NCBI GenBank assembly: GCA_026770705.1
Contig: JANJGN010000021.1
Span: 88,412,001-88,476,000, forward strand
Direction of reading: 5' to 3'
Source of the DNA: Isurus oxyrinchus
Lineage: Eukaryota
DNA length: 64,000 nt
The notes below the pieces were generated by a model. That model did not search any database. It had not been told where the DNA came from and worked only from the letters and a program-made list of their open reading frames with translations. Made by a program: the position numbers and the translations under genes. Each line of letters starts with the position of its first letter. Within the stretch, counting starts at the first letter, position 1. This document shows positions 22,083-61,292 of the stretch, in pieces.

Positions 22083-22118
22083 GTTCACTTTCAAAGTGAT
22101 AGTATCGAAATGACTTAC

Positions 22119-22424: not shown

Positions 22425-22529
22425 CTGATTAACATAAAACAACCAGTTTATTCCTTTAAAGTGTGACAGTGAAACACTGGAATTCAGTGCTCTTTTGTCC
22501 TTCCTGCCCTTCTTCCCCCTTTCACCGAA

Positions 22530-37567: not shown

Positions 37568-39439
37568 ATCATCGTTACGTGTGCTGCCAGTTTCTGAGCA
37601 GGTCCCCATGACAGTGATCCAATGCACTCTTCCTCGCGCTGTTGCTGCTCTTTCTCAGAAGTGGCGAGGCCATTGCTCATCTTGCACTTGTTCTGAGAGG
37701 GAGCGAGACGGATATTTCTCCAGAGAGCCTGCAATAATGATGGCAATACATGTGGCCCCTTTAGGAAGATGTGGCATTTGGGAGTGAGATTAGCTTTGAG
37801 GGGTTATGGACTAGGAATGGGTGTGTAACTGTAATGAAGCTGGAATGGTCATGTACCTCTAGGCAATGTGGCCCCTGCTCTGCTTCTCCTACCCCCTGTC
37901 CCAATAATGGCCAGCACTGCCTCCTCAAGGAGTGGGATGTTTCCTCATGCTGGTCAGGTCCTGCTGCCGCCTGCTCTTATTGTGTATATTTTTTGTGTAT
38001 TCTTGTGTTATTTTGTCTTTAAAGAGAAGGAGTAGTGATTGTGAGTGGGTGTATTGACAGGTGGACTTGTAAACGTGTGTGTGTGTGTGTGAGATGCAGT
38101 TATTTTCCATAATGATACTCAATAACAAGTGTTTCTGTTCTGAATGACAACTAGAGAACCATTTAAGATAAATAGAAAAGCAGCTTGGGTGCATATTAAC
38201 CACACACAAGCAGATTTCCTGTCCTCCACACAACAGTGACCAACACTGTTCCCGATGCAGTGACTAAAGTAACTGGGTCAAAAATACAGAAGAGACAGTT
38301 AATCACAGACTAAACTGAAAAGTCAGTAACACTCACTACTTTTTGCATGAATGAAGTAACTAGTCCTTCGACATATAAACATACACATCTGGAGTTTCCA
38401 TCTGGACTGAAGATGGGTGGTGGAATGAGAAGAGAAGTTACAGAGGCAGATTGGGAGAATTGTACCAAAACTATCCCCCACAGTGGAGAAAATTGGATTT
38501 TAGTAAAGAAAATAAGTAATCTAAGGTAATTTACCATCTGTGTGTAGTCTAGTGAAGGACTTTGACATGAAACATTCTTGAGAAGTTATTCAACCTTAAG
38601 GAATGACTGGGAAGGCCATTATTTAAAAGCTGAGATAATTCATTAGTGGAGCATTTAAAATATGAAAACCTTTGTAAGACATCTTCTAATAGAAAACTTC
38701 AGTGGGGTCCTTCTAATCCTAGGGACCTGAGGTCAGCTGTAGCTTTGAACTGCTGCAACTTTGCTGAGATCAGCTAATCCAGCAAAGACAGAAATAAACC
38801 AAAGACCACCCCATCCTGCAAGGCTCAGGGTCACACTGGGCTCTGACTGTCCGGGAATGGCTGTACTTTTAACCATTGGGTAGTCCTTTTACCACATGGG
38901 TGGTGCCTTGATATAGTTGGTGTTGCCTTTATGCCAATGAGCAGTTCTTTTTCCCCATTAAGCACTCAGGTGGTAATTTCTCTGATGGGCAGTGCCATTG
39001 CCCCCTACTGGATGGCCAAGGAAGGTGTGTTCACGATGTGGCCAAAAAGGTTGATTAGCAGCTTTGAAATCTCTCCACACACATCAACAGCAGGCAGCAC
39101 AAGTGGGAGAGATTCCTGATCAGCCATGTGATGAGAAGAAATTGGAACATCTCCCATCACTATTCATAGGTCCAGGCTACAACATGTATGTAAAAGTCTA
39201 TGTTGCCACAGCAACTCGAACTCCTTGCGGGAGGTGGCGGGGGTGGGGGAGTTGGGGGTTGAGGGAGGGTTTAGTTGACAGGGACAGAAGAGTTTTGCTT
39301 TGTGTTCTGGCTGGGGTGGATTTGGGATCTGCCTCCTTAGCCTGCTGTGGTGGATATTGTGACACTGTGGGTCAGATCTGCTTTTGGGCAAATAACTCAA
39401 GGAGTACCCTAATAGTTCTGGTCTTGTTTTGGAATTTCT

Positions 39440-40120
39440 TTTTGCACTTTTTCTAGTGCTTCTATATTTTCTTGTCAATATGGAAATCAGAACTGTGCAC
39501 AGCACTCTAAACATGGAATAGGCATGGTGCCACAAAGGTTTAACATAGCTTGTTTCGCTTTAGATTCTAGTGCTTGAGAAATGAACTTCAGTGTTTTATT
39601 TGCACATTTGATGGCTCTGTTAACCTACATTGCCACTTTTAATGATCTGCATCTCGAAATCTCTTTGCTCCTATACCCCATTTAGACACCTACTTCCAAA
39701 GAAATATGTGTGGTTTCTTTATTTCTGCTATACAAATACAACATCTCAATTTGTGTACACTGGAATTAATTTGCCATTTAACAGCCCATTCTGCAAGTTT
39801 CCTGATGACCTATAGTTGGCCACAGACTTTCCCTGCATTAACCCTACACCCAGTTTGGCATCATCTGCACATTTGATATTGTACGTTAGGTTTCTGAGCC
39901 CAACTCATTTATGTAAATTGGGATCAGCCGCAGTCCCAGCACCAGTCACTGCAGAACGTAATGAGATTGTTTCTTTTGGTCAGGGTTTTAAGAGATACAA
40001 AAACAGGGACTGGTAAAGCGAGTTGAGGTACAGGGCAGGTATGATCTAACTGAGTGATTGAACAGGCTTGATGTGTTGAATGACCTATTCATGCTCCTTT
40101 GTTCAAATGTTCTTATGTGT
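39440..40120. mobile_element. Old CR1 fragments (- then +)
   Basis: Degenerate CR1 RT and 3' UTR, duplicated at ~45620-46330. Confidence 0.55.
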
Positions 40121-40482
40121 CGTCAGAGGTTACAGCTGAAGATCCGGAGACCTCAATGGCAATTCTACCCTCTGATACCAAGACCACAGTTTGAAAGTCA
40201 ATTGCTAAAGATGACCATTAAGCTTTAAGGGCACTTGACAGTAAACAGGAAATGCTAGTTGATTTGGTGTAAGGTTGACCCACATACTAAAGCAAGGCTG
40301 ATTTCTAAGTTAACGGCTTCATTTCAACTTTTGCCATTGAACCTCATCAGCTTCTCTGACAAAAGCTTTGAATCAAATTTACTGTTGATGTTTCCACACT
40401 GACAGTGGCTGAACAATCCTGCCAACCAAACTCAACTGTCAACGGTCAAACAGTATCTGTAACTAAATGCCACTTAAAAGGA

Positions 40483-40534
40483 ATGGGATTTACAGGGTGT
40501 ATGATTTTTGCTTTTAATCCCTTTGCTCTGATCG
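40483..40534 (+). CDS. Candidate signal-peptide exon 1 of the plus-strand Ig gene
   Basis: ATG...MGFTGCMIFAFNPFALI G|gtaagt; 52 nt; phase 1; in frame with 41280. The donor and the FNxFALI frame are conserved in the paralog at 46862-46907. Confidence 0.6.
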
Positions 40535-41279
40535 GTAAGTGTTGCTATAGTTAATACGTAAAATGTGTCTTTTAACATCTGTTTGAGTTGTAATAAAGCT
40601 GAAAGGATTATCTGAGATAACACATCAGCATCATATGTTCAGTGGAACCAATGCTTATAAAAATATAGCTATGTGTCCAACAGTTGCAGCTCTGGCCAAA
40701 TTAGAATTGTGCTTATTTGATTTTTAACAGTTGTTGAGTTTGAGGAAAGGAAAACATAAAAATAGGTCAGGAGGACAATTCTGATATTTATTTTAAAGAG
40801 GCTCATCTGGCTGAATAATCTCCTTCTGTTCTGTGTGACTCCAAAAGCAATCACCATTTGTAGAGTCAACATTGGTCAGAATAATTTGTGTCTGCAGGAT
40901 AGCCACTAGGTTCTACCATTATGTATTTGACACTGTTCCACATTCTCCCAATATCATGACAGTTTTCAGCAGTTGGTGTATAACTGTGATGAAAAGGTTT
41001 ATAAATGTTGTGTGAGTTAGCCCTTCCACAAATCGTGAAATGTTACCATGAAATGCTACTGGTGTGGGGAGTAGACCCCAGTGACACTGAAGCTATGGGA
41101 GCAGAATGTTCCCAGCATTATACCTAATGGATCCAGGACCATCATGACGTGGTCATGCAAGGCACTGCGAATGTCCGTTTCAATTATATAGTTATCTACC
41201 TCAGTTTCAACAAATTTTGCACTGATCGTTTAGGTGTTGTCACTTTTATATTCAAACAATTATTATCTTCATCTTTAAG

Positions 41280-41669
41280 CCGCTGTAACACTAGGAGTGA
41301 CCCAGGACAGTCTGAATGGAACCGTTCATCAGTCTGTGCTCCTAGCCGCCTCTTACACAGTCTCAGACCCAAGCGGTTACCTTCGGATCAGATGGATGAA
41401 AGCTGGGACGAAAGCTGGGAGTAGAATTGTGGACTATAGATGCACATCGAAGAGAGGCAACATCTCCACTGGGCGCTGCCACTACCTACCTGTTCCTGAC
41501 GACTACAAACGCAGGAGTGTCCTTTTCCCACAAAATGCTTCATTGTTGCTGGAGGATTTACATCTCAACGACAGCGGGACTTATGAATTGTCCATTAGTC
41601 ACCCAATGGGAACAGAGTTGGCCAGGTTCATGTTAACAGTCCAGCCCGACACAGCCCGGGATAGAATGG
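41280..41669 (+). CDS. IgV-set domain exon, HEPACAM/CD2-like
   Basis: tttaag acceptor and gtaggt donor; 390 nt; phase 1-1. Translation LNGTVHQSVLLAASYTV...IRW...DYKRRSVLFPQNASLLLEDLHLNDSGTYELSIS...FMLTV. Confidence 0.9.
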
Positions 41670-41707
41670 GTAGGTACTTTTAAAAAAAGAACATTTTCAG
41701 CAATAAT

Positions 41708-41915
41708 GTAAAAGCAAAAAACTGAGGATGCTGGAAATCCAAAACAAAAATAAAAATATCTGGAAAAACTCAGCAGGTCTGGCAGCATCTGCGGAGAGGA
41801 ATACAGTTAACGTTGAACTGTTGAAGAGTCATACGGACTTGAAGCGTTAACTCTATTCCTCTCCGCAGATGCTGCCAGACCTGCTGAGTTTTTCGAGGTA
41901 TTTTTATTTTTGTTC
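41708..41915. mobile_element. Fold-back PLE pseudo-LTR insertion (70-bp inverted arms) with a 10-bp TSD
   Basis: 41743-41812 is the reverse complement of 41845-41914 (3 mismatches). CAGCAATAAT occurs at 41698-41707 and 41916-41925. Confidence 0.9.
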
Positions 41916-42069
41916 CAGCAATAATTTGTTCACCAATGTTCACTTGACCTGGTGCCAGGTTCAGAAGTCTATGGATGTTATTTGTTTTTAAACACAGCAG
42001 CGCTAAGATTGCCTCCTCTGACACAAAATGTTTCCATTGTTGAATTTTCTGTTCCAGCATTTGAAATGA

Positions 42070-42420
42070 TCAACAACACCAGCTCACATTTATACAGCGC
42101 TTCAACACTGAAAGATGCCCTAGAGGCTTTTAACAGAAGGAATTATCAGGCAGGATTTGACAGCGATTACCGAAGGTGATAATAGGACCGGTGACCAAAA
42201 GCTTGGTCAAAGAGAGAGGTTTTAGGGGGACCAGGAGGCGGACAGAGAAAGATATAGGGAGCTGAGAGGTTTAGGGAGGGGATTCTTAGACTTAGGGTCC
42301 AGCCAGTTGAATGCGCCACTGTCAATGATGATGGTCGAGGATGGTCAAGCGTTCAGAATTGGTGGGGTTGGGGAGCACAGATTTCACTGCGGGACGGAGC
42401 TGTAGATATAGGAGGGATGA
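42070..42420 (-). mobile_element. L2 3' end
   Basis: GACCAAAAGCTTGGTCAAAGAGAGAGGTTTTA is the reverse complement of the L2 tail motif. Confidence 0.7.
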
Positions 42421-43164
42421 GAATCATTTCATTCTAACCCGCTGAGCTGGCTCAGCAACCCCCTTAACTCAAAATTATAGACCCATTTCTGCTCAGACCA
42501 CTGGAATGAATTTACAATATTAACCTATTCCTCTGACCGGCCAGGACTTGAATCTCGTTTTTGACCGATTCATTTTAAAGTTAGGACTGAATTCGGAAGA
42601 GGTCGGTTCAAATCGGCAGTCAGCAAATGTTCATTTACGCAAAAACTGGGCTAGAATTTTCCTGCAGTCGGAGTAACGGAGGAAAATCTCTTAACATTTA
42701 CCCCACGGCAGGTCGAGTCTCCAGTGTGAGCAGTGGAGGGATAAACTCGATTCGTCCATCTCACCTTCAAAATACAGGGACCGTGGGAACGCAGTAAGCA
42801 TTAGGCTACTCACATCGCCCAGTAGTTACTTAAATCTCGGCTTTGGCCTCAAAATGAATCACTAATTTGTCCATTTTGTAGAATTAAAACCGTCTCTTAT
42901 GCTAATTACCACAGGACCTTTCAATCCTCAATGGGCGACAACTTACTGGATCTCCGCCACATTGTCCACTTAACCTCTTCTGCTTTTGAAGCCACTGTCT
43001 GATGGAGTTCAGGCCGCACAAGGGATGACAAGTTCTATTTAGGCTCACGACATGAGACTTTAGATTCAGGATTATGATGCATTGCCACTTCTCTTTATCA
43101 GGTTATAATTGTCCGGTGCCTTCAGAACTAAGGTTCGATCAAAGTGATAGAATCCTCCAGCGCA

Positions 43165-44770
43165 CACACAGAGGCCATTTCGACCCAATGTGGCTTGGCC
43201 GGACATTTGAAGTTTTATCCAATTAGTCCCACCTTTTCTTGGTAGCCCCACAATCTCTTCCTTTGCAGGTGTGTATCTAATCCCCTTTCGAAAGTTATTA
43301 CTGGATATGTATTATCCACCCTGTCAGGCAGTACGTTCCAGATTACAACAATTTTTTTTATTCATTCACGGGATCTGGGCTTTGCTGGGGGTGGGGGTGT
43401 AGCATTAATGGACCATCTCTCGTTGCCTTAAAATATATTCTTCTAATTTCTCATCTGCTTCTTTAGCCAATTTCTAAACCTGTCTCCCTTGGTTAATGAC
43501 CTTCCTACTCAACTCATTTATACTATCAAAACTCTCACTATTTTAGAACCCCTCGATTAAATCTCCTAACCTTTCCTGCTCTGGGAATAATTCCAGTTTC
43601 TCTACTCTCCCCATATAACTGAAATCTGTAATCCTTGGTATAATTCTGGCACTTCTCCCCTGCACACTTTCCAAAGTCCTCATGCCCTTTCCACAGTGTG
43701 TCCAGAATCGTACGATATTGCAGCTGAAGCCTACACCAGTGATTTATAAAGTGTGAGCAATATTTCATTGTTTAAGGGACCGGCTCACCGATCAATGCTC
43801 TATCTCTCCATTTGAAGTAAAATACTGACATGTGGAGCTTTGCTCTCCCAGCAGGGATGGCATGGCCAAGTATGAGATGCAGCTAAAACAATAAACAGAA
43901 GGCAGGAGCAATGGACAGGGATAAATTAAATAATGGGCTACAAGCCATTCAGGATTTTCCATGTAGTAATAGGGTAAGATTACTTCACTACTCACAGTAA
44001 TAATAATTTGGTTGAGGAAGGAGAACATGCTTTATGTTGTGGAGAGATGAAATATAGAATCATAGAAAATCATAGAGAGGTTAGAGCAGAGAAGGGTGCC
44101 ATTTAGCCAGTAGTTGTCTTTCTGAATGAGCAATTCACCTCAGGCTATTCCTCCACCTTCTCCCCTTAGCCCTGCACATCTCCTCTTTCAGGTAAGAATC
44201 CAATTCCATCCTGAATGCCTCGTTTGAACCTACCTCCAATACACCCTCAGGCAGTGAGTTCCAGATCCCAACCACTCACTGCCTGAAATCGTTTTCTTTC
44301 CCCTCATGTCTTCATTACTTCTGCCAATTACTTTAAATCTGTGCCCTCTGGGTCTCAATCCTTCCTGTCCTCAACAGAATGTTTCTCCCTATCTACTCTG
44401 TCCAGCACCCTCATGATTTTGAATAGCTCTGTCAAATCTCCTTTCAACCTTATTCTTCTCCAAGGAGAACAGTCCCAACATCTTCAATCTATCTGCAAGT
44501 CTGACATTCCTCATCTCTGGAAGCTTTGCCAATCACTTGAATGTTTTCAGCACTCTCTCTAATGCCTTCACATTGTTCCTAAAGTGTGGTGCCCAGAACT
44601 GGACACAATACTCCAATACACATAGCTCCCTTGCTTTTGTACTCTATGCTGCTATTGATAAAGTTGAGGATTCTGTACTCTTTATTAACAGCTCTAGCTG
44701 TCAGTCCTGCCATACTCAATGGTCTATGCATATATACACCAAGGTCCCTCTGCTCCTGCACCCTCCCCCA
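43165..44770 (-). mobile_element. Two decayed CR1 3' fragments (~43165-43765 and ~44050-44770)
   Basis: Reverse-strand CR1 C-terminus; (ATTCTAT)-type tail at ~44053-44075. Confidence 0.7.
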
Positions 44771-45479
44771 GCCCGACTTAAAATTGTGATGAATTATATG
44801 ACTGAACAAGTGCTAAGCATATATGTAATGGTTTCCATGACCAAATAAGAATGTAGATTTTATATAGTAAGTATAAGCAAGAATTAAGCAATGCATTGTG
44901 TACATATAAGATACTTTGATGGAGTCTAACCTCAGAATCACAGATTGATACAGCACAGAAGGAGACCATTTGGCCCATTGTGTCTGCACCGGCTCACTGA
45001 ATGAGCAATCATCTTGTCACGCGATGGAGGGGAAACTTTTACTTCCTGGACATTGGACTTGCCTTGGGTGGAGACATTAAAGATCGTGATCAAGAGCTAG
45101 TAAAGGAATCAATTTTGTCCACCTTATATTTAGTTGTTGAAGTTAAAAGCCTAAAGTTAAAAGCCTGTGGAAGTTTGCAGTTTCCACACAGTCAGAAGTA
45201 GCCTACTTGCGTGGCAAGGTATAAAGCTATAGTAATTGGAAAATATGGAGATTTATATCTTTACTAACAATTGTAAATAATTAACTGGAAACCTTTAACT
45301 CAAGTCATAACAATGGATCAGGATGTATAAATCAACTCTAATAATAAAGAGCTGACGTCCCAAATGTCACCAGATGAGAGCATCTTCACTTCCCAAATGA
45401 ATGTATTGGAATAACAATTAATAGTGATGTTTGTTCCTATTATTTTTGTGAAATGAATAAACCCATATTTGCTGCTTAG

Positions 45480-45514
45480 ATACAGTCAAGAAACGAACAT
45501 CAGCCAAAGTCTGA
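45480..45514 (+). pseudogene. Duplicated stalk/TM exon copy with a premature stop (possible secreted-form terminal exon)
   Basis: gcttag|AT ACA GTC AAG AAA CGA ACA TCA GCC AAA GTC TGA; paralogous to 57460, which has GTT CGA here. The donor is lost. Confidence 0.6.
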
Positions 45515-46478
45515 AATGATGGTCTTTTTTTTAACTTCCTGTGCTTTTCTGTGAAAACTCAGTCTTCTCTTTCCTACAGAATAGAGCCCCAGCCTGTTCA
45601 GACTTTCTTAATAGTTGCAGCCTGTTGGCTCTGATATCATCTTGGAGATCTTTCCGGCATTTCCACCAGAGCATCTATATTTCTGCAATGTGGAGACCAC
45701 ACTCCACAATACTCTAAATGTGAGCTAATCAATTGACACAGCATGCCTCAATTTGAATTCTATTCCACTAGAAATAAACCAACTATGCCCTCCTCCCCCC
45801 ACCTCCATTTTATGGCTTTGTTAACCTGCATTGCTACTTTTAATGATTAGTGAATCTTCCCTCCTCAATCCCTTTGCTCCTCTACCCATTTAAACTCTAT
45901 GGAGTCTGCGACCTCCTTATTCCTCCAACCAAAAGACAACACCTCACGCTTACGTTGGAATTATTTTGCCATTTACACTTCCATTCTGCAATTTTTAAAT
46001 GTCTCCTAATATTTTGGCAGGGTATTAAATCTGCCCCCACAAATTTTGATATTATAATTCAGATTCCCAGGTCCAAATCAGTTAGATATTAGTGGTGAAT
46101 GGCAGTGGCCGCAGCATCGATTCCTGACAGACATGATTAGATTTTTGTGGAGAGAAAAACTCCAAAGTATTTCGCTTTTACTTTACGGCTAGATTTTTGT
46201 TCGGCCAGGATATTATTGAAGGATTTGGAACCCAGGTGAGTAAGTGGAGTCGAGATACTGACCAGTCATGATCTAATTAAATGGCAGGAGAGGTTCGAGG
46301 TGCTGAATGGCCTATTCATTATCCAATGTTCAGAAGTAGTTTTGCTTCATCTGAATTGACGGGGGGCCCCGGAGGCAATTCTACCGCCTGATACCGAGAC
46401 TACTGTTTGGAAACCTATGGCCTAAGGCGACAATTAACTTTTAAAACCACTTTTTAGCAAGCAGGAAACAATATTATG

Positions 46479-46608
46479 GCAAAAGCAAAAAACTGCGGTT
46501 GCTGGAAATCCAAAATAAAATCAAAAATACCTGGAAAAACTCAGCAGGTCTGACAGCATTTGCGGAGAGCAACAGTTAATGTTTCGAGTCCGTATGAGTC
46601 TTCAGCAG
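46479..46608 (-). mobile_element. Short PLE pseudo-LTR/hammerhead insertion with TSD
   Basis: Reverse complement GTT-CTGCTGA-A-GACTC-ATACG-GACTC-GAAA-CA-TT-AAC. Flanks AACAATATTATG/AACAATATCATG. Absent from the paralogous site at ~40250. Confidence 0.85.
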
Positions 46609-46847
46609 AACAATATCATGATGCTGTCTATTTGGCTCTGAAGTTGACCACAGATTAAAGCATGGTCGATTTGTAAGTTAAGGGCTGGATTTTGGTGCTT
46701 TGTAACTGGACCACATCAGTTGTGCACACAGATTTGAACAGTATCATTGTTAATTTTTCCATGTTGACAGTGACTAAATAGTCCTTCTGATAAAACTCAA
46801 CTGGAAACAGTTAAACAGAATCTGTAACAAGATGTCACTTAAAGGAA

Positions 46848-46907
46848 ATGGGTCTTCAAGCATGGATAGTGTCCATCTTTACACTTTTAATCTCTTTGCT
46901 TTGATCA
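46848..46907 (+). pseudogene. Second (duplicated) leader exon with no downstream IgV exon
   Basis: Paralog of 40483-40534 ending in A|gtaagt. The homologous ATG (46848) runs into TGA; the ATG at 46862 is in frame. Confidence 0.5.
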
Positions 46908-48280
46908 GTAAGTGTTGCCACAATTACGATTTAAAATGTACCTTCTAACATTCACCGGGATTGTGAAACAGTTCCCGTTGGAGCATTTATCTGGGGTAAT
47001 ACATTTGCTGATATCAGTTCGGTGGAATGATCGTTTGACAAACCTATTGTCTACACGTTCTTCAGTTGCCGTTTTTAACAAATGATCATTTTGCTCGATT
47101 TTGTTTTTTGGTTTTGGCGACTGAAGAAAAATAAACACTTGCAGGGCAACAGCGAAAAAGATGGTGGTGAGTGGGCAATTCTATAATCTCTTTCAAAGAG
47201 GCACGAGGGGTTAAATGATCTATTTCTGTTATGTCTGATTCAAAATGAAACCGCAATTACAACTGGCCAGAATAATTCCAGCATGCATATGCTTGAACCT
47301 CTTTGATATTCCCCCAACATAGAATCATGGAGGCCGTTCAGCCTGTCATGTCCATGCTGGCTCTCTGCAACAGCAATTCACCTACTCTCCCTACCCCGTC
47401 TTTTTCCTATGACCCTACAAATTTTTCCTTTTTTAGATAATAATCCAAATCCCTTTTGAATGTCACCATTGGCTCCACCACACTCCCAGGCAATGTATTG
47501 CAGATCCTCACTCGCTGCATCAAAGTTCTTTTGCCCATCACCTTAAACCTGTGTCCAATGGTCCTTGATCCTTCCATGATTGGGAACAGTTTCTCCCTAT
47601 CTACTCTGTCTCCTCATGATATTGGACACCTCTGCTGTTTATAGGCCCCCTAACAGTAGTTGTACTTCAGGGCAGAGTGAAGCTCAGGAAATTAGAGGTG
47701 CATGTACCAAGGGTAATAGAGTAATGTGGGAACCTTAACCTCCAAATAGACAGGACAAAGAAAATTTGCAGTAATATTGTGCAGGGCTAGCCCATGGAAT
47801 ATGTACCAGATAGTTTACTAGATCAGTATGTTGAGCATCCAGGGAACAGGCTATCTTGTATCTAGTATGTGCAATGATAAAGGAGAAATGAATAACCTTG
47901 TACTAAAGGAGCCTCTGGGGAAGAGTGACCATAATGTGATAGAATCTTTTTTGAGTTTGAAATAATTTCATTAAACTTAAAACTGGAGTCTTACACCTAA
48001 AGGAAACAGATTGCCCAGGTAGGAATAGCAAGCTGGCTAAGGTAGTTTGGGAAACTACATTAAATGATATGCAGGGAGACAAATAATGGCTAGCATTTAA
48101 AGCTCTAATTCATAATTTCCAACAAATATATATTTGTTTAAGACACAAAAACCCCAGAGTAAAAAAATGGTAAAACTGTGGCTATCATGAAGAGTACATG
48201 TTTGATCATTGGAAGAATCTTATAATGATTGGGAGGATTTTAGAATTCAGCAGATGAGGACCAAGGCATTGAGAAATAAA

Positions 48281-48941
48281 GGGCAAAATTTTCTGCTTGT
48301 TGGGCGGGCGGGCCTAACCCAATCTCCAGAGAAGTGGGCCCCGCCACTATTTTACATGGGTGGGCCAATTAAGACCCGCCCTGCATGACATCCAGTGGGA
48401 AGCGCTATGTGCTCCCTGAGCAGGTGGGTGGTGGGGGGGGTGGCGCATTCCCAAAATGCGAGAATGCACTCTTTCGTGCTAAGTGCAGCCTCAGGGAGAT
48501 CGCTTACATTTTCAAAAATATGAAAAATAGAAAAAAAATTCCCTAATATGTCCCCCTCATGTGATAATGTCACTTGAGATGGGACATGTTCATGATTAAC
48601 ATAATAACTTTCTTAAACCTTTTAAAACCCTACATGAAACCTCATCCTGCCAGTGGATGAGGCTTCATGCTTTTCTCTAGTTGCCACTGGGGCTCCTGGC
48701 CGACCCGCCAACCTTGAGGTTGGACGGGCAGGTCCTATAATTGGTTAATTGACCCTGTCAATGGCCTCAGTTGGCCATTGACAGGTCGGCGGGCCCACAG
48801 CTGATTTTGCTGCGCCCCCGCCTTCCTGAAAATTTAAATGGGGCGGGGTGACGTCGGGGGTTCCGCCCGACGTGATCCGCATCATTTTACGCATCGGTGA
48901 GCGGGCCCCGCCCCCTGCTCACCAAAGGCAAAATTCTGCCC
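48281..48941. mobile_element. PIF/Harbinger-like MITE
   Basis: TIRs GGGCAAAATTTT / AAAATTCTGCCC and a 3-bp TSD AAA; inverse copy of the elements at 55.0 and 63.0 kb. Confidence 0.75.
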
Positions 48942-48988
48942 AAAGAGAAAATATAACATGAGAGTAGACTAGCAAAAGACATAAAAAA

Positions 48989-51900
48989 GATACATGCGTG
49001 CTAAACAGCAGAAGCAGCATGCGATAGACAGAGCTAAGCGATCCCACAGATGACAGATCAGATCAAAGCTCTGCAGTCCTGCTGCATCCAGTTTTGAAAG
49101 GTGGTGGACAGTTAAACAACTAATTAGAGAAGGGGGTTCTAAAAATATTCCCATCCTCAGTGCTGGGGAGCCCAACACATCAGTGCAAAGGACAACGTTG
49201 AAGCATTTGCAATCCTCTTCAGCCAGGAGTGCCCAATGGATGGTCCATGTCATCCTGCTCTTGAGGCCTCCAATATCACAGGTGCCAATCTTCAGCCAAT
49301 TGATGCACTGCACATGATATCAAGAAGTTGCTCAAGGCACTGGATACTGCAAAAGCCAATGGTACCGGCAATCTCCCAGCTTTATGACTGGAGATTTGTC
49401 CTGCAGAACAAGCCAGACCCCAAAACATGATGTTCCACTACATCTACAACACTAGCACCTACTCAACAACATGGAAAATGGCCCTGTCCACAATATGCAA
49501 GACAAGTCCAGTCCTGCCAGTTATTGCCCCATCAATCTACTCTCAATCATCAGCAAAATGACGGAAGGCGTCATCGACAGTACTTTCAAGTGGCACTTAT
49601 TCAGCAATATCCTGCTCACTGCTGTTCAGTTTGGGTTCTGACATGGACACAAAGCTCCAGAGTTTATTATAGCCTTGGACAAAACATGAATAGAATAACT
49701 GAGTTCCAGAGGTTAGATGAGATTCAGAATCACAGAATCACAGTGCAAAAGAGGCCCTTTGGCCCATCGAGTCTGCACTGACACATCAGAAACACCTGAG
49801 CTACCTGCCTAATCCCATTTACCAGCACTTGGTCCATAGTCTTGAATGTTATGATGTGCCAAGTGCTCATCCAGGTACTTTTTAAAGGATGTGAGGCAAC
49901 CCGCCTCCACCACCCTCCCAGGCAGCGCATTCCAGACCTCTGGGTAAAAAAGTTTTTCCTCACATCCCCCCTAAACCTCCTGCCCCTCACCTTGAACTTA
50001 TGTCCCCTCATGACTAACCCTTCAACTAAAGGGAACAGCTGATCCCTATCCACCCTGTCCATGCCCCTCATAATCTTGTACACCTCCATCAGGTCGGCCC
50101 TCAGCCTTCATTGCTCCAACCAAAACAACCCAAGTCTATCCAACCTCTCTTAATAACGTAAATGTTTCATCCCAGGCAACATCCTGGTGAATCTCCTCTG
50201 CACCCCCTCCAGTGCAATCACATCCTTCCTATAATGTGGCGACCAGAACTGCACACTGTACTCCAGCTGTGGCCTCACCAAGGTTCTATACAATTCCAAC
50301 ATGACCTCCCTACCTTTGTAATCTATGCCTTGATTGATAAAGGCAAGTATCCCATATGCCTTTTTCACCAGCCCACTAACATGCCCCTCTGCCTTCAGAG
50401 ATCTATGGACACACACGCCAAGGTCCCTTTGTTTCTCAGAACTTCCTAGTGTCATGCTGTCATTGAAAACTTCCTTGTCAAATTACTCCTTCCAATGTGT
50501 ATCACCTCATACTTTTCAGGGTTAAATTTCACCTGCTAGTCATCTGCCCTTTTGACCATCCCATCTATATCTTCCTGTAGCCCAAGACACTCAGCCTCAC
50601 TGTTAACCACCTGGCCAATCTTTGTGTCATACGCAAACTTACTAATCCTACCCCCCATATAGTCATCTATGTTATTTATATAAATGACAAATAACAGGGG
50701 ACCAAGCACAGATCCCTATGGTACACCATTGGACACTGGCTTCCAGTCACTAAAGCATTCTTCTGTCATCACCCTCTGTCTCCTAAAGCTAAGCCAATTT
50801 TAAATCCACCTTATCAAATTACCCTGTACCCCATGTGCATTTGCCTTCTTTATAAGTCTCCCATGTGGGAGCTTGTCAAAGGCTTTGCTAAAATCCATAT
50901 AAACTACATCAACTGCACTACCCTCATACCCTCATCTACACACCTGGTCATGTCCTCAAAAAATTCAATCAAATTTGTTAGGCATGACCTCCCTCTGACA
51001 AAGTCATGCTGGCTAAACCTGATCATACCTTGCCTCTCCAAGTGGAGATAGATACTCTCCTTCAGAACTTTCTCCAATAGTTTCCCTACCACTGATGTTA
51101 GACTCACTGGCTTATCTCTACAACCCTTCTTAAATAGAGGAGCCACATTAGCTGTTCTCCAGTCCTCTGGCACCTCCCCTGTGGCCAGAGAGGAATTAAA
51201 AATCTGGGTCAGAGCCCCTGTGATCTCCTCCTTTGCCTCCCTCAGCAGTCTGGGACACAAATCATCTGGACCTGGAGATTTGTCCACTTTTAAGCCTGCC
51301 AACACCTCCAATACCTTGTCACACCCTATATCAATTTGCTCAAGAAACTCACAGCCTCTCTCCCTGAGTTCCATACCTTCATCGTCATTCTCTTGGGTGA
51401 GGACGGATGTGAAGTATTCATTCGGCACTCTACCGATGTCCTCTGGCTCCACCCATAGATTGTCCCCTTGGTCCCTCATGGGCCCTACTCTTTCCCTGGT
51501 TATCCTCTTCCCATTGATATACTTATAGAATATCTTGGGATTTTCTCCACTTTTACCAGCCAGAGCTTTCTCACATCCCCTCTTTTTTCTCCTAATTGCT
51601 TTCTTAAGCTCCACCCTGTACTTTCTGTACTCCACTAATGCCTCTGCTGATTTGCTTCCCTTGCACCTGCTAAAAGCCTCTCTTTTCCTTCTTATCATAA
51701 CCTGAATATCTGGTCATCCATGTTTCTCTGGGCTTGTTACTCCTTCCTATCACCCTGGAGGGAACATGTTGAGCCTGTACCCTCCCCATTTCTTTTTTGA
51801 ACGCCTTCCACTGCTGCACTGTAGATTTCCCCATAAGTAGCTGTTCCCAGTCTACTTTGGCCAAATCCTGCCATATTTTACTAAAATCCTTTCTCCCCAA

Positions 51901-54860
51901 ATCCAAAACTTTTTTTTTGCAATTTGTCAATTTCTTTGTCCATAACAAACTTAAACTTGTACCATGTTGTGGTTGGTTTCACTAAAAAGCTCGCTCACCA
52001 TTACCTCAGCCACCTGTCCAGCTTCATTCCCCAGAATTAGGTCCAGCACTGCACCGTCCCTTGTTGGACCCTCTACATATTGACCTAAAAAGTTCTCCTG
52101 TACGCACTTCAAGAAATCCACTCCATCCAAGCCCTTAACACTATGTCTATCCCAAAAATGTTGGGAAAGTTGAAATCACCTAATATAATTACCCCATTGT
52201 TATTGTTTTTACACACCTCCGCACATTGTACACATATTTGCTCCTCAATTTCCCGCTGACTATTTGGGGGTCTGTAATAAACACCTAACAATGTGGCTGC
52301 CCCTTTTTTATTCCTAAGCTCTACCCACAAAGCTTCATTTGATGCCCCCTCCAAGATATCATCTCTCCTTACTGTAGTAACTGACTTCTTAACTAATAAT
52401 GCAATGCCTCCTCCTCTTTTATCCCCTCCCCTGTCTCACCTGAATAATCTATATCCCGGAATGTTGAGCTCCCAATCCTGCCCCTCCCTCAACCACATCT
52501 CAGTGATGGCTATTATATCACAATTCCACGTGTCAATCCTCACCCTTAACTCATCCGTTTTACCTGTAATACCCCTAGCATTAAAGTAGAGGCCATCCAG
52601 CCTTGCCTTACTCCTTGGAAACTTAATGTAGCTGTACTCCCTCTGACTTGATTGTTTTACTGTATAGTGATGTGCCCCTATTCTGCTAACATTCTGTGTC
52701 CCCTCCCCCTGCTGAATTAGTCTAAACTCACTCCCAACATCACTAGCAACCCGCCCGCAAGGATATTAGTCCCGCTCTGGTTCAGATGTAGACTGTTCCT
52801 CTTGTGCAAGGCCCACCTTCCCCAGAAACGGTCCCAGCGATCCAGGAATCTAAAACCTTCCCTCCTGCACCAACTCTTAAGGCATGTATTCATCTGTGTT
52901 ATTCTCCTATTTCTGAGCTTGCTAACACGTGGCACTAGGAGTAATCCAGAGATTACAACCCGAGAGGTCTTGTTTTTTGTCTACTGCCTAACTCTCTGAA
53001 TTCTTGATGCAAGAACTCATCCCTCTTTCTACCTATATCATTGGTACCAACATGCACCATGATCTCTGCCTTATTACCCTCCCCCTTCAGGATGCCGTGC
53101 AGCCATTCAGTGACATCCCAGACCCTGGCACCAGGGAGGCAACATACCATCCTGGAGACACAGGCCACAGTAGCACCTATCTGTTCCCCTGACTATAGAA
53201 TCTGCTTTTACTATTGATCTTTCTCCCTTCCTCCCCTCCTGTACAGACAGGCTGCTTGTGGTGCCAGAAGCTTGGCTCTGTCTGCACTCGCTGGAGGAAC
53301 CAGCCTCCAAAATGGAATTCTGACTTGCGAGCTGGACCCCAGGGGGCTCCTGAACAACCTGCCTGTTTCTCTTGGACTGCCTGGTGGTCACCCATTCCCT
53401 TCCTTCCTCAAGTCCCTTCATCTGCGGTGTGACCACCTCTCTCAACATGCTCTCCACGATGCTCTCAGACTCGCAGATGCTCCACAGTGTCCCCAGCGAC
53501 CATTCCAGTGCTAAACCCGAGCTTCCAGAAGCTGCAGCTGGACACGCTTCCTGCACAAATGCTGGTCCTGGGCACTGGAAATGTCTCTGGCTTCCCATGT
53601 GGAGCACCAAGAGCACACCACAGCTTTGAGCGCTCCTACCATGACTTATCCCTTTAATTTAAACCTTTTAAATCAATTACTCTAGGGCCCTTCTTTCCTG
53701 ATCCTCATTACTGTAGAATATACAAATTGTAAACCACAAAAAGACCTTAAATAATAAGCGATTAAAGTAGCAAATACCTCACCCACTACTTACCAGTGAT
53801 TCCTTTCCCTTGTAGCCTCTATTGCTGCAGCAGGGCGAGACCCACGCTCTGAAGATTTAACTAGTTGGATAGCAAGGAAAAAATGCAAAGAGCACCTCGT
53901 CCCCTATGCACCTAATTCTCACTGTGCACCAAATTGCCAATACTCACTCTAGCTGTGCCTCACTCAGGATGAGCTCTCTCCCCTGTTCGTGTGCAAGCAC
54001 ACTGTCTCAAGTGACACCAAGGGAGCAGTTGTTCAAGTGTGACATCAAGGAGCCCTAGCAATTCTGAGGTCAATGGGAATCAGGGGGAAATTATTTATGG
54101 TTGGAGTCATACCTAGCACAGAGGAAGATGATTAGGATTGTTGGAGATCAATTATCTAAAGTCCAGGACATCACTGCAGAGTTCCTCAGGGCAGTGTCCT
54201 AAACCCAACTATCTTCAGCTGCTTCATCAATGATCCTTGCTCCGTCATAAGAACAGAAATGGAGCTGTTCGCTGATGATTGCATGGTGTCAATACCATTT
54301 GTACCACACAAGTGCCAAGCAATGACCATCTCCAAAAAGAGAGAATCTAACCATTTCCCATTGACATTCAACAGCATTACCATCACTGTGATTGAGGCTG
54401 GAAATTCAAGTACCTCACTTCCTGTGTCCTCAAAGCCTGTCCACCATCCATAAGTCAGGAGTGTAATAGAATACTCTTCACTTTCCTAAATGAGTGTAAC
54501 TTCAACAATACTTAAGAAGGTTAACACCATCCAGGGTGAAGCAGCATGCTTGATCAGGACTCATCCAGCACCTTAAGCATTCGCTCTTCCACCACTGGTG
54601 CACAATGGCAGCAGCAGGTACCTTCTACCTTCCAAACCTATGAACTCTACCACGTGGAAGAACAAGGCAGATCCATGGGAACACCGCCACCTGTAGGTTC
54701 TGCTCCAAGCCATACAACATCTTGATTTGGACCTTAGGAACCCCCTTCCTAACTGAGCTGTGGGTGTACTTACACCAGAAGGACTGCAGTAGTTCAAGAA
54801 GGCTGCTCACCATCGCATTCTCAAGGGCAGTTAGGGATGGGCTCACATCCTATGAAGTGC
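48989..54860 (+). mobile_element. Family B LINE split by a CR1 (pieces ~48989-49722 and ~54010-54860)
   Basis: Colinear with 59050-60950 on both sides of the CR1. Confidence 0.8.
49726..53990 (-). mobile_element. Near-full-length CR1 LINE (esterase ORF1; EN + RT ORF2), decayed
   Basis: VHVGTNDIG, GVYYRPPN, GDFNFPNI, VSLTSVVGK, LVRPQLEYSVQFWSPH; (ATTCTGTG)n tail at ~49726-49745. Confidence 0.93.
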
Positions 54861-55023
54861 AATTAGAATGGGGCATAAGGAAATGGCAGAGATATTAATC
54901 AGATATTACGTGTTTATCTTCATGAACTGCAAGACCCCAAAAAATTCCAGAATAATGGGGAATCAAGGGCCTAGGGAAAATAAGGAGCTTAAAGAAATCA
55001 CTAAAAGTACAGAAATATTCCTG

Positions 55024-55558
55024 GGGCAGAATTTTTGGCTCAGCGAGCAGGGGAGGGGTCTGCGTGCCGAGGCATAAAATGACACAGGTTGACATCAGGC
55101 GTGCGTCCCGATGTCACCACGTATCATTTAGATTTTCAGTTCGGCTCGGCTGCGCGCCCACCAAACTCTCAAAGGCTTGTTAAGGCCATTAATTAATTAA
55201 TTAAGGCCATTGAGAAAGCTGCCCGTCCAACCTTAAGGTTCACATTTTTCATGGAACCTCATCCACGGGCGGGATGAGGTTTCATGAAGGGTTTATAAAT
55301 TATAAATTTTTTGTTGACGTTCATTGACGTGTCCCAGCTCATGTGACACTGTCAGATGAGGGGACATGTCTTAAATATTTTTTTCTCTTTATTAAAATTT
55401 TTAAAACTTACAACTTATCTCGCTGAGGCACCTTTGTGCCTCAGGAGATTTCTGCTCTCCCAACTCAGGGAACACCCGCACAGGGAGCGCTTCTGGGTGA
55501 CCCGATTGGGAGCACCCGCCCCCACACAATCCCCCAACGGGGGCGGAAAGTTCTCTCC
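55024..55558. mobile_element. PIF/Harbinger-like MITE
   Basis: Starts GGGCAGAATTTT; CTG/CTG 3-bp TSD; same family as 48281. Confidence 0.72.
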
Positions 55559-57459
55559 CTGATGAAATTAGTGGAATTAAATGGCAAAAAAACCCCTGGC
55601 ATGATATCCTGCAATCTATGGTTTTAGAAAGGGAGCTACAGAGATAATGCATGCATTGGTTTTGATCTTCCAGAATTCCTTAGCTTCTAGAACTGTTCCC
55701 AAGAATTGGAAGGCAACAAACACATTCCCAATTTTTAAGAAAGGAGGATGAGACAAAACAGGGAATTGTAGGCCAGTTAGCCTAACATCAGTAGTCGGGA
55801 AAATGCTTGAATCTATTATTTGAGGCTTGATAATGGGCAGTTAGAAAATCAAAATATGATGAAGCAGGGTCAACATTATTTACGGAATGGAAATCACGTT
55901 TTACAAATCTGTTAGAGGTTTTTGAAGATATAATCACCAGGAAGGAGAAGTGCATTTGGATTTTCAACAAGTATTCAGTAAGAGGTTATTAATCAAAATT
56001 AAGACTCATGCGATTGGGGATTAGCATGGACTGAGGCTAGACAGAATATACAGAGTAGACAGAAAACAGAGAATAGGAATAAGCAGACATTTTCAGGTTG
56101 GATGACTGTAATTAGTGGTGTACTGCAAGGGTCAGCTATTTATAATCTATATGGATGACTTTGATGAAGGAACTAAGAGTAACACATCAAATTTCATGAT
56201 GGTACAAAATTAGTTGGGAAAGTAAGTGGTGAGGAAAATGCAAAGATACTGCAAAGGAATATCAACAGATGAAGACAGTAAGCAAAATATGGTAGATGGA
56301 ACACAATATGGTAAAGTATGAAGCTGTCCACTTTGATAGGAAAAATAAAAAGGCCAAAAAATTAATGAATGAAGTGAGAGACTGGGAATATTTGAATTCA
56401 GAGAGAGCTGGGTGTTCTTGCACATGAACCACAGAAACTTAACACATAGGTACGACAAGCAATTAGGAACACAAATGGTATGTTAAACTTTTATTACAAA
56501 AGGATTGAAGTATAAGGTTAAAATTGTTTTACTATAATTATACAAGGCATTGGTGAGGCCACACCTGGACTGGTGTGTGATGTTCTGGTCTCTTTACCTA
56601 AGGAAGCGCATACTTACACTAGAGGGAGTGCAGTGAAGGTTCACTATACTAGTTCTTGGATTAAGGGTTTGTCCTTTAAGGTGAGATGAGTATATTAGAT
56701 TTATATTCCCTGGGACTTGCAAAGAATGAGAGGTGATTGAATAAAAACATACACAATTCTTAAATATAGATGCTGAGAAAATATTTCTCCAGGCTGGGAA
56801 ACTGAGAGCACAAGGTCACAGTCTCAGGGTAAGGGGTTAGCCATTTAGGTCTGAGGTGAGGAGAAATTTCTTCACTCAAAGTGTTGTGAATCCTTGGAAT
56901 TCTCGACCCCAGGGACTACAGATGTTCAAGACAGATTTTTGTGTAGGAATGGAATTAAGGGATATGGGGATAGTGCTGGAAAGTGGGGGCGAGGCTGAAG
57001 ATCGGTCATGATCTTAATGTATGGCAGAGTGAGTCCAAATTTCCAAATGTCCTACTCCAGCTCCTATTTCTTGTGTTTTTATGTAATGGAATTCATTTTG
57101 TCCACTGATATTTAACTCTCTAATTAACCGTCTAAAGCCTACAGAACTTTGCAGTCTCCGTGGAGCCAGAAGCAGCCTACATTCTGGGTCAGATAAAAGC
57201 TACAGTAAACAGAAAAGGTCAAGATTCTCATCTTTATTAGCAATTGTGTAAATAATTCATCGGAAGCCTTTAATTCAGTCAGGACAGCAACCTAGGATGT
57301 AACTAACAACCTAGTAATGTAAACATTAATGTAGATGAACTTTCCAATGTCCCCATAAGAGCTCCTTCCTTCCCAAATGAATGCCTTGAAATGAAAATTA
57401 CCAACAGCAAGTGTTCCTACAATTTCAATGTAATGACAAAACCTCTGCTTGTTGCACAG

Positions 57460-57561
57460 ATACAGACAAGAAACAAACGCCAGAAGTTGAAGCCAAAGTT
57501 CGATATTTAAGCCTTGTTCTAATTGTGTTCTTTCTGTGTTTCACTGTGAAAACACAAAAAG
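57460..57561 (+). CDS. Stalk + transmembrane exon of the plus-strand Ig gene
   Basis: gcacag acceptor and G|gtaagt donor; 102 nt; phase 1-1. Translation (D)TDKKQTPEVEAKVRYLSLVLIVFFLCFTVKTQK. Confidence 0.72.
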
Positions 57562-58199
57562 GTAAGTGGTAATGTTGTGAGACAGTCTCCGCTACCCTTA
57601 GCTATGCTGTCTCTGCATTTCTGATTGCAATGTTAATTAAAAGGTGTTCCTCTGTGGATTATAGAAACCAATGAAGGATTTATTGCCCCGTTCCAAGTGA
57701 GCTCAGTTCAGCTATATGAAAACAGCATTTGAATTCTTTCTGGGTTCTTGTTGGCTTTAGCAGTATCGTCCATTTTATTTCCAATCTTTTGTTCTTTTAT
57801 CCGAAGTACTACGCAGCACTGGTGAGATTTTAACCTAACTGGTTGGATGGGAATCCAAAGGGATGGGATGGAATGACTGCTTTATGCCCTGCCAACTATT
57901 TTCACTGTTGTCTTTAAGGGGATTAAACTCAGAAGAGACGTAAAACCAGCGTTGGACTATATCCTCTAAGCTTCCCGCCGTGTGACCCCGGTTAAAATTG
58001 TCCTGTGAGAGATAGAAGTAACACAACAGATAAACCCAAATATCCTGTGTTTCCAATGCAGATAAAAATGACAAAATATTGCATTATCCAGAATGGTTTT
58101 CTCATTAAACGGGAATTATAAATCTTAAATAACCCTGAAAGAGCTCCCATTCTAGCGAACACCAACATTAGCTGCATGGCTTAAGCAAACACGACGTTT

Positions 58200-60951
58200 G
58201 CTGACCAATAACTATCCTCATGGAATCATACCTTACAGATAAAGTCTCAGACTCCAGCATCACCATCCCTGGGTATGGCCTGTCCCACCGGCAGGACAGA
58301 TCCAACAGAGGTGGAGGCACAGTGGTACACAGTCGGGAGCGAGTTGCCCTGGGAGTCCTCAACATTGACTCCGGACCCCATGAAGTCTCATGGCATCAGG
58401 TCAAAGATGGCAAGGAAACCTCCTGCTGACTACCACGTACCGTCTAACCTCAGCTAATGAATCAGTGCTCCTCCATGTTGAACACCACTTGTAGGAAGAA
58501 CTGAGGCTGGCAAGGGTGCAGAATGTACTCTGGGTGGGGGACATCAATGTCCAACACCAAGAGTGGCTGGGTAGCACTACTATAGATCGAGCTGGTTGAG
58601 TCCTAAAGGACATAGCTGCTAGACTGGGTCTGCGGCAGGTGGTGAGGGAACCAATAGGCAAAAATATACTTGAGCTCATCCTCACCAACCTGCCTGCCTC
58701 AAATGCATCTGTCCATGACAGTATCGGTAGGAGTGTCGTTGTGGAGACAAAGTCCCGACTTCACATTGAGGAAACCCTCCATCGTGTTGTGTGACATTAC
58801 CACTGTGCTAAATGGGCTGGATTTCGAACAGATCTAGCAACTCAAGACTGGGCATCCATGAGGTGCTGTGGGCCATCAGCAGCAGCACTGTACCCTACCT
58901 CAACCTGTAACCTCATGCCCTGGCATATCCCTCACTTTACCATTACCATCAGCACTGGTTCAATGAAGAGTGCAGGAGGGCATGCCAAGAGCAGCACCAG
59001 GCATACCTAAAAATGAGGTATCAATGTAGTGAAACTACAACACAGGACTACTTGCGTGCCAAACAGCATAAGCAGCAAGTGATAGATAGAGCTAAGCAAT
59101 CCCAGAACCAACGGATTAGATCTAAGCTCTGCAGTCCTGCCACATCCTGTCGTGAATGGTGCTGGGCGATTAAACAACTCACTGGAGGAGGAGGCTCCAC
59201 AAGTAACCCCATCCTTAATGATAGAGGAGCCCAGCACCTCAGTGCAAAAGATAAGGCTGAAGAATTCGCAAGAATCTTCAGCCAGAAGTGTCGAGTGAAT
59301 GATCCATCTTGGCCTCCTCCGAAGGTCTCCAGCATCACAGATGCCAGTCTTCAACAAATTTGATTAATTCCACGTGATATCAAGAAATGGCTGAAGGCAC
59401 TGGATGCTGCAAAGGCTATGGGCCCTGACAATATTCCATCAATAGTACTGAAGACTTATGCTCCAGAACTTGCCACGCCCCTAACCAAGCTGTTCTAGTA
59501 CAGCTACGACACTGGCATCTGCCTGGCTATGTGGAAAATTGTCCAGGTTGGTCCTGTACACAAAAAGCAGGACAACTTCAACTTGGCCAATTATGTCCCC
59601 ATCATTCTACTCTTGGTCATCAGTAAAGTAATGGAAGGAGTCATCAACAGTGCTATCAAGCGGCACTTGCTTAGCAATAACCTGCTCACTGATGCCCAGT
59701 TTAGGTTCCGCCAGGGCCACTCAGGTCTTGACCTCATTACAGCCTTGGTTCAAACATGGACAAAAGAGCTGAACTCCCAAGGTGAGGTGAGAGTGACCGT
59801 CCTTGACATCAAGGCAGCATTTGACCAAGTGTGGCATCAAGGAGCTCTGACAAGACTGGAGTCAATGGGAATCAGGGGCAAAACACTCCACTGACTGAAG
59901 TCAGACCTAGAACAAAGGAAGGTGGTTGCAGTTGTAGGAGGTCAGTCATCTCAGCTCCAGGACAAGACTGTAGGAGTTCCTCAGGATGGTGTCCTCGGCC
60001 TGACCATCTTCAGCTGCTTCATCAATGACCTTCCTTTCATCATAAGGTCAGAAGTGGGGATGTTCGCTGATGATTGCACAATGTTCAGCACCATTCATGA
60101 CTCCTCAGATACTGAAGAAGTCCATGTCCAAATGTAGCAAGACCTGTACAATATCCAGGCTTGGGCTGACAAGTGGCAAGTAACATTTGTGCAACATAAG
60201 TGTCAGGCACTGACCATCTCCAACAAGAGAGAATCCAACCACCAGCACTTGATGTTCAATGGCATCACCATCACAAAATCTCTCACTATCAACATCCTGA
60301 GGGATACCATTGACCAGAAACTGGACTGGACTAGCCATATAAATACTGTGGCTGCAAGAGTAGGTCAGAGGTTAGGAATCCTGGGACGAGTAACTCTTGA
60401 CCCCCCAAAGCCTGTCCACCATCTACTAGGCACAAATCAGGAGTGTGGTGGAATACTCCCCACTTATCTGGATGACAACAGCTCCCACAACACTAAAGAA
60501 GCTTGACACTGTCCAGGACAAAGCAACCCACTTGATTGGCACCCGATCCACAAATATTCACTGCCTCCACCACCGACGCACGGTAGCAGCAGTCCGAACC
60601 ATCTAAAAGATGTACTGCAGGAACTCACCAAGGCTTAGACAGCACCTTCCAAATCCACGGCCACTACCATCTAGAAGGACAAGGGCAGTAGATAGATGGA
60701 AACACCACCACCTGGATGTTCCCCTCCAAGTCACTCACCACCCTGACTTGGAATCATATTGCCATTCCCACATTGTCACTGGGTCAAAATCGTGGAATCC
60801 CTTCCTAACAGCACTGTGGGTGTATCTACTCCAGATGGACTGCAGCGGTTCAAGAAGGCAGCTCACCCCCACCATCTCCGGGGCAGCTAGGTATGGGCAA
60901 TAAATGCTGGCCCAGCCAGCGAAGCCCACATCCCGCAAATGACTAAAAAAA
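58200..60951 (+). mobile_element. Family B LINE, ORF2 nearly complete (EN + RT), decayed
   Basis: ESYLTD...RQDRSNRGGG, VGDINV, LDIKAAFDQVWHQG, GVPQDGVLG, FADDCT, then AATAAA and an A tail. Confidence 0.92.
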
Positions 60952-61236
60952 CGAACTAAATTCTGAGATACTGATTGTAATCATGCAGAAGAGAAAATCC
61001 TACTTTATAACATAGTTAACATACAGGGCCACTGCTGAACCTGTGACATCCAATCAGCCAGATAAATAGTCTATAAAAATGAATAGGAATGTTTGATGTG
61101 CAACTTTACCTCCATACGATTTCAACTTGTAAAAAAGTGCAATAATTCTAACATGGGAGTGTTGATTTAAACTGTGTTTTCCGAGAACAACAATTGTTCA
61201 GTCCCAAAGGAAAATAACTAGGGTTTTCTCACTCAG

Positions 61237-61292
61237 GTTGTAAGAAAACTCAGAAACAAACACAAAAGGACAGTGCTGCTCAGGATGGTCAG
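61237..61292 (+). CDS. Candidate cytoplasmic exon of the plus-strand Ig gene (gene probably continues beyond the window)
   Basis: ttttctcactcag acceptor and CAG|gtgagt donor. The phase-1 start fits the TM exon: (G)CKKTQKQTQKDSAAQDGQ. Confidence 0.6.

Follow-up and report, generated by a model that had tools for sequence, protein, structure and literature searches.

Immunoglobulin heavy chains switch between a secreted and a membrane form that share one ectodomain, with a stop-bearing exon upstream and a transmembrane (TM) exon downstream. The outer part of the transmembrane adaptors LAT, SIT, and TRIM is very short; they have a single TM segment, juxtamembrane cysteines, and several tyrosine motifs in the tail. 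Another known arrangement is the partial (internal) gene duplicate, in which an incomplete copy of promoter and first exons lies beside the source gene (PMC3449122). Here, we describe a locus with such a copy in Isurus oxyrinchus. The window analyzed is a stretch of 64,000 nucleotides (nt) from contig JANJGN010000021.1 (positions 88,412,001 to 88,476,000, forward strand). The locus probably represents one shark gene for a membrane receptor with a single immunoglobulin V (IgV) domain, likely rebuilt from an old partial tandem duplication; its V exon is spliced to the TM exon of the downstream unit, and an orphaned second leader likely starts a short isoform without an ectodomain.

Local alignment revealed two paralogous blocks at this locus, 39408-40886 versus 45621-47277 and 45100-45561 versus 57083-57556, which confirmed with near-identical bounds the paralogy claimed in an initial annotation of this DNA (~39440-40890 with ~45620-47280 and ~45150-45570 with ~57125-57560). 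The exon order is leader 1, V, TM1, leader 2, repeats, TM2, and two tail exons, the second of which carries the stop codon and lies just outside the window (L008:2720-2854). The features of the locus are as follows.

39408-40886, plus strand: upstream region of unit 1 with the leader and the first part of intron 1; paralogue of 45621-47277.
40467-40517, plus strand: homologue of the ancestral start codon, recognized from orthologue leaders and now out of frame; a 16-codon upstream open reading frame (ORF) with weak context, overlapping the working start.
40483-40534, plus strand: coding part of leader 1, 17 amino acids (aa), with a phase-1 donor; 16/17 residues equal those of basking shark isoform X1.
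41280-41669, plus strand: single IgV exon, identified by Pfam V-set, predicted structure, and V-set fold matches.
45480-45561, plus strand: TM1, decayed copy of the TM exon, with the acceptor before 45480 kept, a TGA, two deletions, and the donor gone.
45562-45620, no strand: junction of units 1 and 2, between the end of TM2 similarity (45561) and the beginning of unit-1-upstream similarity (45621).
45621-46831, plus strand: unit-2 upstream region, presumed second promoter and 5' untranslated region, with a short repeat insertion near 46481-46608.
46832-46907, plus strand: leader 2, an intact leader exon of the ancestral type, 25 aa, with a phase-1 donor; likely an alternative first coding exon to 57460, 25/25 residues equal to the N terminus of XP_078422379.1.
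47277-57083, no strand: repeat-filled interval at the expected position of the unit-2 V exon, without V remnant by homology searches and repeat matching.
57460-57561, plus strand: TM2, working TM exon, 102 nt, phase 1 to phase 1, seen in spliced contigs.
61237-61292, plus strand: first cytoplasmic (tail) exon, 56 nt, joined to TM2 in a contig from run X3.

All leader, V, and TM junctions are in phase 1, so the junctions are phase-compatible as first noted. Similarity of the unit-1 copy to TM2 ends at 45561, five bases short of the position equivalent to the TM2 donor; 60 bases on, at 45621, the DNA begins to resemble the upstream region of unit 1. Therefore, the unit-1 copy now runs from the upstream region to the TM exon, and the tail exons are single. 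The six non-coding sub-blocks shared by the units are 65-74% identical, with Kimura two-parameter (K2P) distances of 0.32-0.48. A genome search with the TM2 region as the query returned only that region itself and the unit-1 copy (2/2 candidates). DNA contigs from a second organism (organism B) cover the V exon, the unit-2 upstream DNA, the leader-2 donor, and TM2 at ~98% identity; since these include parts of both units, the layout is not an assembly artefact.

The membrane form was examined in contigs from sequencing runs, of which four were compared on 57085-58200. In both runs that gave any contig there (two organisms, two studies), the V end at 41669 was joined to 57460. The contig from run X2 (organism A, study P1) has 135 letters ending at the exact end of the V exon and joined to 57460, whereas that from run X3 (organism B, study P2) joins a short V end, the whole of TM2, and 33 letters of tail exon 1, with the letters confirmed; it thus also contains the 57561-to-61237 splice. 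Runs X1 and X11 gave nothing on TM2, which is not evidence of absence; run X1 had seemed to give a signal in the TM2 bin (depth 11.3), but a repeat look at TM2 did not bear it out, and it was dropped. Runs X1-X3 carry no RNA label on record and are only presumed to be RNA, though an exact exon-exon join across a 15.8-kb intron implies spliced RNA behind the contigs. The leader 1-to-V splice presumably follows the basking shark X1 model. The predicted product, leader 1-V-TM2-tail, has 244 aa. Orthologue models with the same leader-V-TM-tail layout, 232-339 aa long, were found in 8 elasmobranch species among 9 matches. By this comparison, the membrane form has the ordinary shark orthologue layout, which is ancestral and hence not new, and the composite restores the receptor. 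The composite gene proposed initially, with V spliced to 57460, was thus borne out by the spliced contigs and the basking shark X1 model; two of the four junctions listed for checking, 41669-57460 and 57561-61237, occur in contigs, and the intact TM exon and the cytoplasmic exon described for unit 2 stand together in one of them.

In unit 2, searches with tblastn, nhmmer --max, and hmmsearch --max turned up neither a V exon nor a V remnant in 47277-57083; they thus gave no sign of the second V exon in 47.3-57.1 kb considered at the outset. Repeats that occur elsewhere in the 104 kb examined match 8311 of the 9807 bases. Of the initial description (no visible V exon, 10 kb of nested transposable elements instead), the V absence and the repeat filling hold. 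Two repeat fragments, 44115-44431 and 47358-47634, are 64% identical, and the second starts just past the end of unit-2 similarity; it may mark the breakpoint of the deletion that removed the second V, or it may be an independent insertion. Could the missing V be a misassembly or a private deletion at a locus that normally holds two complete genes? Multi-copy arrays do exist, as Scyliorhinus has three paralogous models with both leader types, and no single read or contig spans the gap. However, V is spliced to TM2 in two organisms, basking shark isoforms X1 and X2 show the same composite, and the genome contains one close V copy (one match at 100%, the other 6/7 at 32-40%). We consider a normally two-gene locus very improbable.

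The leaders were compared next to their orthologues. Leader 2 is an open 76-nt exon from the ATG at 46832 to a GTAAGT donor after 46907; like the leaders of Heptranchias (62% over 26 residues) and Heterodontus (56%), to which it is similar, it is full-length. It is leader 1 that is the frameshifted copy: it is 8 nt shorter when counted from the homologous ATG at 40467, and this ATG has gone out of frame. Its working start is the ATG at 40483, in strong context, and the basking shark X1 model begins alike. The "damaged leader" attributed to unit 2 was therefore assigned to the wrong unit, and the reciprocal decay proposed for the two units holds for the lost unit-2 V and the decayed unit-1 TM exon but not at the leader, where leader 2 survives. 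All five leader-2-type leaders compared (the window, Heptranchias, Heterodontus, and two from Scyliorhinus) have an N-x-S/T triplet with varying letters at residues 6-8 (46847-46855 in the window). Judged from the sequence, this triplet could be glycosylated if the N terminus of the short form stays uncleaved. Leader 2 was also considered as the leader of a downstream V-C2 gene; this was set aside, since basking shark isoform X2 joins leader 2 to TM2.

A V-less product of leader 2 is annotated in the basking shark. A search with the last tail exon returned two proteins among 32 candidates, basking shark X1 (XP_078422378.1) and X2 (XP_078422379.1). RefSeq X2 has 122 aa and consists of leader 2, a junction Asn, TM, and tail, with no V. 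The junction Asn is the one predicted from the phase-1 bases in Isurus, and 122 aa is the exact length predicted for leader 2-TM2-tail there. As expected of an alternative first exon, leader 2 has a start codon, an open frame, and a donor in phase with the downstream exons. None of its 25 residues differs from the basking shark, versus 20/238 in the other exons, and its end branch in the leader tree is short (0.17). The V exon is 91% identical to the basking shark protein and 65-73% identical to those of other sharks. As described for buffalo, the NCBI pipeline retains an alternative variant only if a single long alignment or a single RNA-seq sample supports it in full (PMC5737279). Because full transcript support is demanded, basking shark X2 likely reflects real transcripts, if the rule carries over from buffalo. 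The part of the basking shark genome note that was accessible mentions heart RNA-seq and gives no annotation detail (PMC13044535). If made, the short form presumably lies in the membrane, and one may speculate that it acts as a modulator that shares TM and tail without ligand binding.

To place the duplication in time, leader and V-domain trees were compared; the leader tree included Mustelus and left out Pristis. In this leader tree, a group supported at 84/92 (not starred) held leader 1, the Mustelus leader, those of three carpet sharks, and that of one Scyliorhinus paralogue. Leader 2, Heptranchias, Heterodontus, and two other Scyliorhinus paralogues were placed apart from that group. This tree would place the duplication before the split of those shark orders. 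A pedigree rate of 7e-10 per generation has been published (PMC10587355). At a K2P near 0.36, it would yield >1e8 generations and was unusable as a calibration; no per-year rate was found. The duplication appears to be old, with its age not fixed.

A composite gene of old origin with a second, V-less start is probable, and several observations weigh against it. A duplication confined to lamniforms was not rejected by the approximately unbiased (AU) test (p-AU 0.18). The V tree was a polytomy, and AU tests rejected none of three groupings. Among the Scyliorhinus copies, the one with a leader-2-type leader has a V nearer to that of Isurus (72%) than the one with a leader-1-type leader (67%), which does not fit simple orthology of the units. 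No contig joined leader 2 to TM2 (0/2 contigs on TM2), although contigs drop rare forms. The two tail exons contain one Tyr and no motif like the immunoreceptor tyrosine-based inhibitory motif (ITIM), so that no signaling route is evident. The unchanged leader 2 is not significant against the other exons (p 0.11), and its simulated chance ranges from 0.11 to 0.011 at assumed neutral divergences of 4-8%. The DNA upstream of leader 2 shows no more conservation than its flanks (K2P 0.34).

The last two points also bear on the reading that the full-length receptor alone matters, with TM1 and leader 2 as relics and leader 2-TM2 transcripts as low-level noise that a residual promoter produces. The contigs on TM2 showed the V-TM2 join alone, as this reading expects. 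With indels ignored, an ATG and an open frame outlast substitutions in 40-84% of cases when divergence is 4-20%. Against it, X2 is annotated as a separate isoform, and leader 2 combines a lack of amino acid change with a short end branch. We regard a relic as rather unlikely. In the opposite direction, the original leader may have become a conserved internal start, with the 122-aa protein selected across lamniforms and pairing or competing with the full receptor through TM and tail, and with the dead TM copy perhaps adding a minor secreted form; this fuller account is possible and remains doubtful.

The decayed TM exon bears on the other claim made initially, that of a soluble/membrane switch. 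By alignment, the TGA at 45512-45514 in TM1 corresponds to the CGA at 57501-57503 in TM2, so the CGA>TGA change described for unit 1 is present. TM1 keeps the acceptor AG and the phase, has 9-nt and 6-nt deletions, and has lost the donor at the junction. Even reading through the stop, it is far less hydrophobic than TM2 (best 15-residue mean, 1.2 versus 2.69). Both deletions are multiples of three, compared with 12/58 of the non-coding indels (about 4% by chance). Because both keep the frame, TM1 was probably once translated, perhaps for some time after the duplication. A Scyliorhinus paralogue (P0023) with a leader-1-type leader, V, TM, and no annotated tail may show the stage at which TM1 was still translated.

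A regulated switch would splice V either to 45480, giving a secreted product of 158 aa that ends at an intronic polyadenylation site, or to 57460, giving the membrane form. The retained AG and phase and the frame-keeping deletions fit such use, as do the pyrimidines before TM1 (12/20, as before TM2) and an AATAAA at 45773, ~260 nt past the stop. However, 103/971 intron AGs score as well as or better than the TM1 acceptor by a crude score, and AATAAA occurs 11 times in the 15.8-kb intron, a chance density. No V-to-TM1 protein was found among annotated relatives in a search at 70-226 aa, where the 1 match among 15 candidates was a TM-skipping Chiloscyllium isoform, and the basking shark yields only X1 and X2. 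In reads covering 39300-58000, repeats crowded out the leader 1-to-V, V-to-TM1, and leader 2-to-TM2 junctions (15 of 1441 joints and 32 of 174,732 pieces listed). The contig from run X2 crosses from V to TM2 unbroken at depth 5, a weak point against the switch. A downstream donor (46235 or 46907), if used, would make the TM1 stop premature, and a premature stop likely triggers transcript decay. In Chiloscyllium (bamboo shark), isoform P0019 skips the TM exon in frame and so already gives a soluble model without duplication; the same skip is possible at the Isurus oxyrinchus locus and would give 210 aa. The membrane form is the ancestral architecture. The proposed switch was not upheld; we consider it improbable, and TM1 is most likely a dead pseudo-exon.

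Returning to the composite receptor, its history may have run as follows, with the second promoter and the order of events as presumed steps. A promoter-leader-V-TM segment would have been copied in tandem ahead of the tail exons. Unit 2 would then have lost its V exon, with repeats filling the gap, and the unit-1 TM exon would have lost its donor and gained a stop. Transcripts from the first start would skip TM1 and leader 2 to give leader 1-V-TM2-tail in the ancestral layout. Those from the second start would give leader 2-TM2-tail, which is annotated in the basking shark and was not seen in Isurus oxyrinchus.

The V domain scores 34.9 bits against Pfam V-set PF07686 (cutoff 26, E 1.9e-8), and its predicted model has a mean predicted local distance difference test score (pLDDT) of 90.5. 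The fold of this model matches VCBP3 (Z 15.6, root-mean-square deviation 2.7, 121 aligned), with CAR and PD-L1 at similar scores. The domain lacks the B-F strand cysteines, has two cysteines at positions 54 and 66, and carries four N-glycosylation sequons. In the N-terminal IgV domain of CEACAMs, conserved Arg and Asp replace the intradomain cysteines (PMC4079198). Likewise, among 73 aligned homologues of the shark domain, R78 is nearly invariant and D97 invariant. Domains of CD2/SLAM and HEPACAM are also without intradomain cysteines, so this feature is not diagnostic of CEACAM. The profile match to CEACAM6 is weak (E 0.0012), and no CEACAM is among the 50 structure matches listed. With a cutoff of E 0.001, a profile search returned 496 proteins; of the ten top matches looked up, nine were models from sharks or rays and the tenth was a bird "CEACAM5-like" model. 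The labels that relatives carry in databases differ ("HEPACAM-like," "A33 antigen-like," uncharacterized), and by these comparisons the family assignment is open. Heterodontus, ray, and bird proteins carry ITIM-like motifs in the tail; the Isurus oxyrinchus gene and the basking shark lack them.

Other observations concern the relatives. The V domain has a four-residue insertion resembling a local repeat, in common with the basking shark, which lacks three residues near the N terminus. At the last tail exon there is a tandem (NAGNAG) acceptor (L008:2711-2719), where the Mustelus model, but not the basking shark, has an extra Gln. The small paralogue sets of the catshark (Scyliorhinus P0007, P0023, P0025) and rays (Pristis P0009, P0027, P0028) contain two TM types and variable Tyr motifs. 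The V domains of a six-domain protein from a bird (P0021) are very similar but have an extra cysteine pair. Hemiscyllium X2 (P0012) and Heptranchias X3 (P0018) share a similar short alternative exon after TM that yields nearly tail-less isoforms.

The gene lies between inverted paralogous exons for V and C-type Ig domains, with identities of 87.5% and 79.5%. The upstream copies lie at 22089-22487 and 17546-17879 on the minus strand, and the downstream copies at L009:9252-9652 and L010:846-1180 on the plus strand, where they continue into hydrophobic exons. A Chiloscyllium model (P0003) fuses the front half of the orthologue to such an Ig neighbor, probably a prediction artefact. The window also contains a satellite array (1-12661; 35-bp unit, ~363 copies, 82% matches, strong strand skew) and an ORF at 33163-33825 with two ZCCHC3-type RNA-binding domains and a zinc knuckle, probably ORF1 of a retroelement.

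A literature search on six of these locus ids (basking shark LOC144695355 and relatives) found no paper, and no description of the gene or arrangement was found, most subscription papers being beyond the reach of the search. The impact is moderate, since neither partial duplication nor the use of alternative first exons is new; a short form that proves to be a regulated protein would raise it. The duplication scar is readable and would show one route to an internal promoter and an ectodomain-less receptor isoform: a leader is orphaned by V loss, and the old TM and tail come to serve the copied V.

Among known systems, the closest is the basking shark orthologue LOC144695355, with X1 as leader 1-V-TM-tail and X2 as leader 2-TM-tail without V; it differs in consisting of automated models only, and the duplication origin of its second start is invisible in protein records. 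The elasmobranch single-IgV receptors (Heptranchias, Heterodontus, Scyliorhinus, Mustelus, carpet sharks, and rays) share the layout of leader, V, TM, and two tail exons, with V 52-73% identical. No V-less isoform was found among them, but the last-tail-exon search reached only the basking shark; Heterodontus and ray tails keep ITIM-like Tyr motifs, and Scyliorhinus keeps separate V-bearing paralogues. The 122-aa form is predicted to share with LAT, SIT, and TRIM the very short outer part, single TM segment, and juxtamembrane cysteines; unlike them, it has one tail Tyr without an ITIM-like motif and is a receptor isoform, not a separate gene. In contrast to the immunoglobulin heavy chain switch, the upstream exon here is a decayed TM copy with no sign of use or regulation. 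Finally, the case differs from the partial gene duplicates described (PMC3449122) in that complementary losses appear to have fused the two units into a single gene, in which the presumed original leader persists as an internal start.

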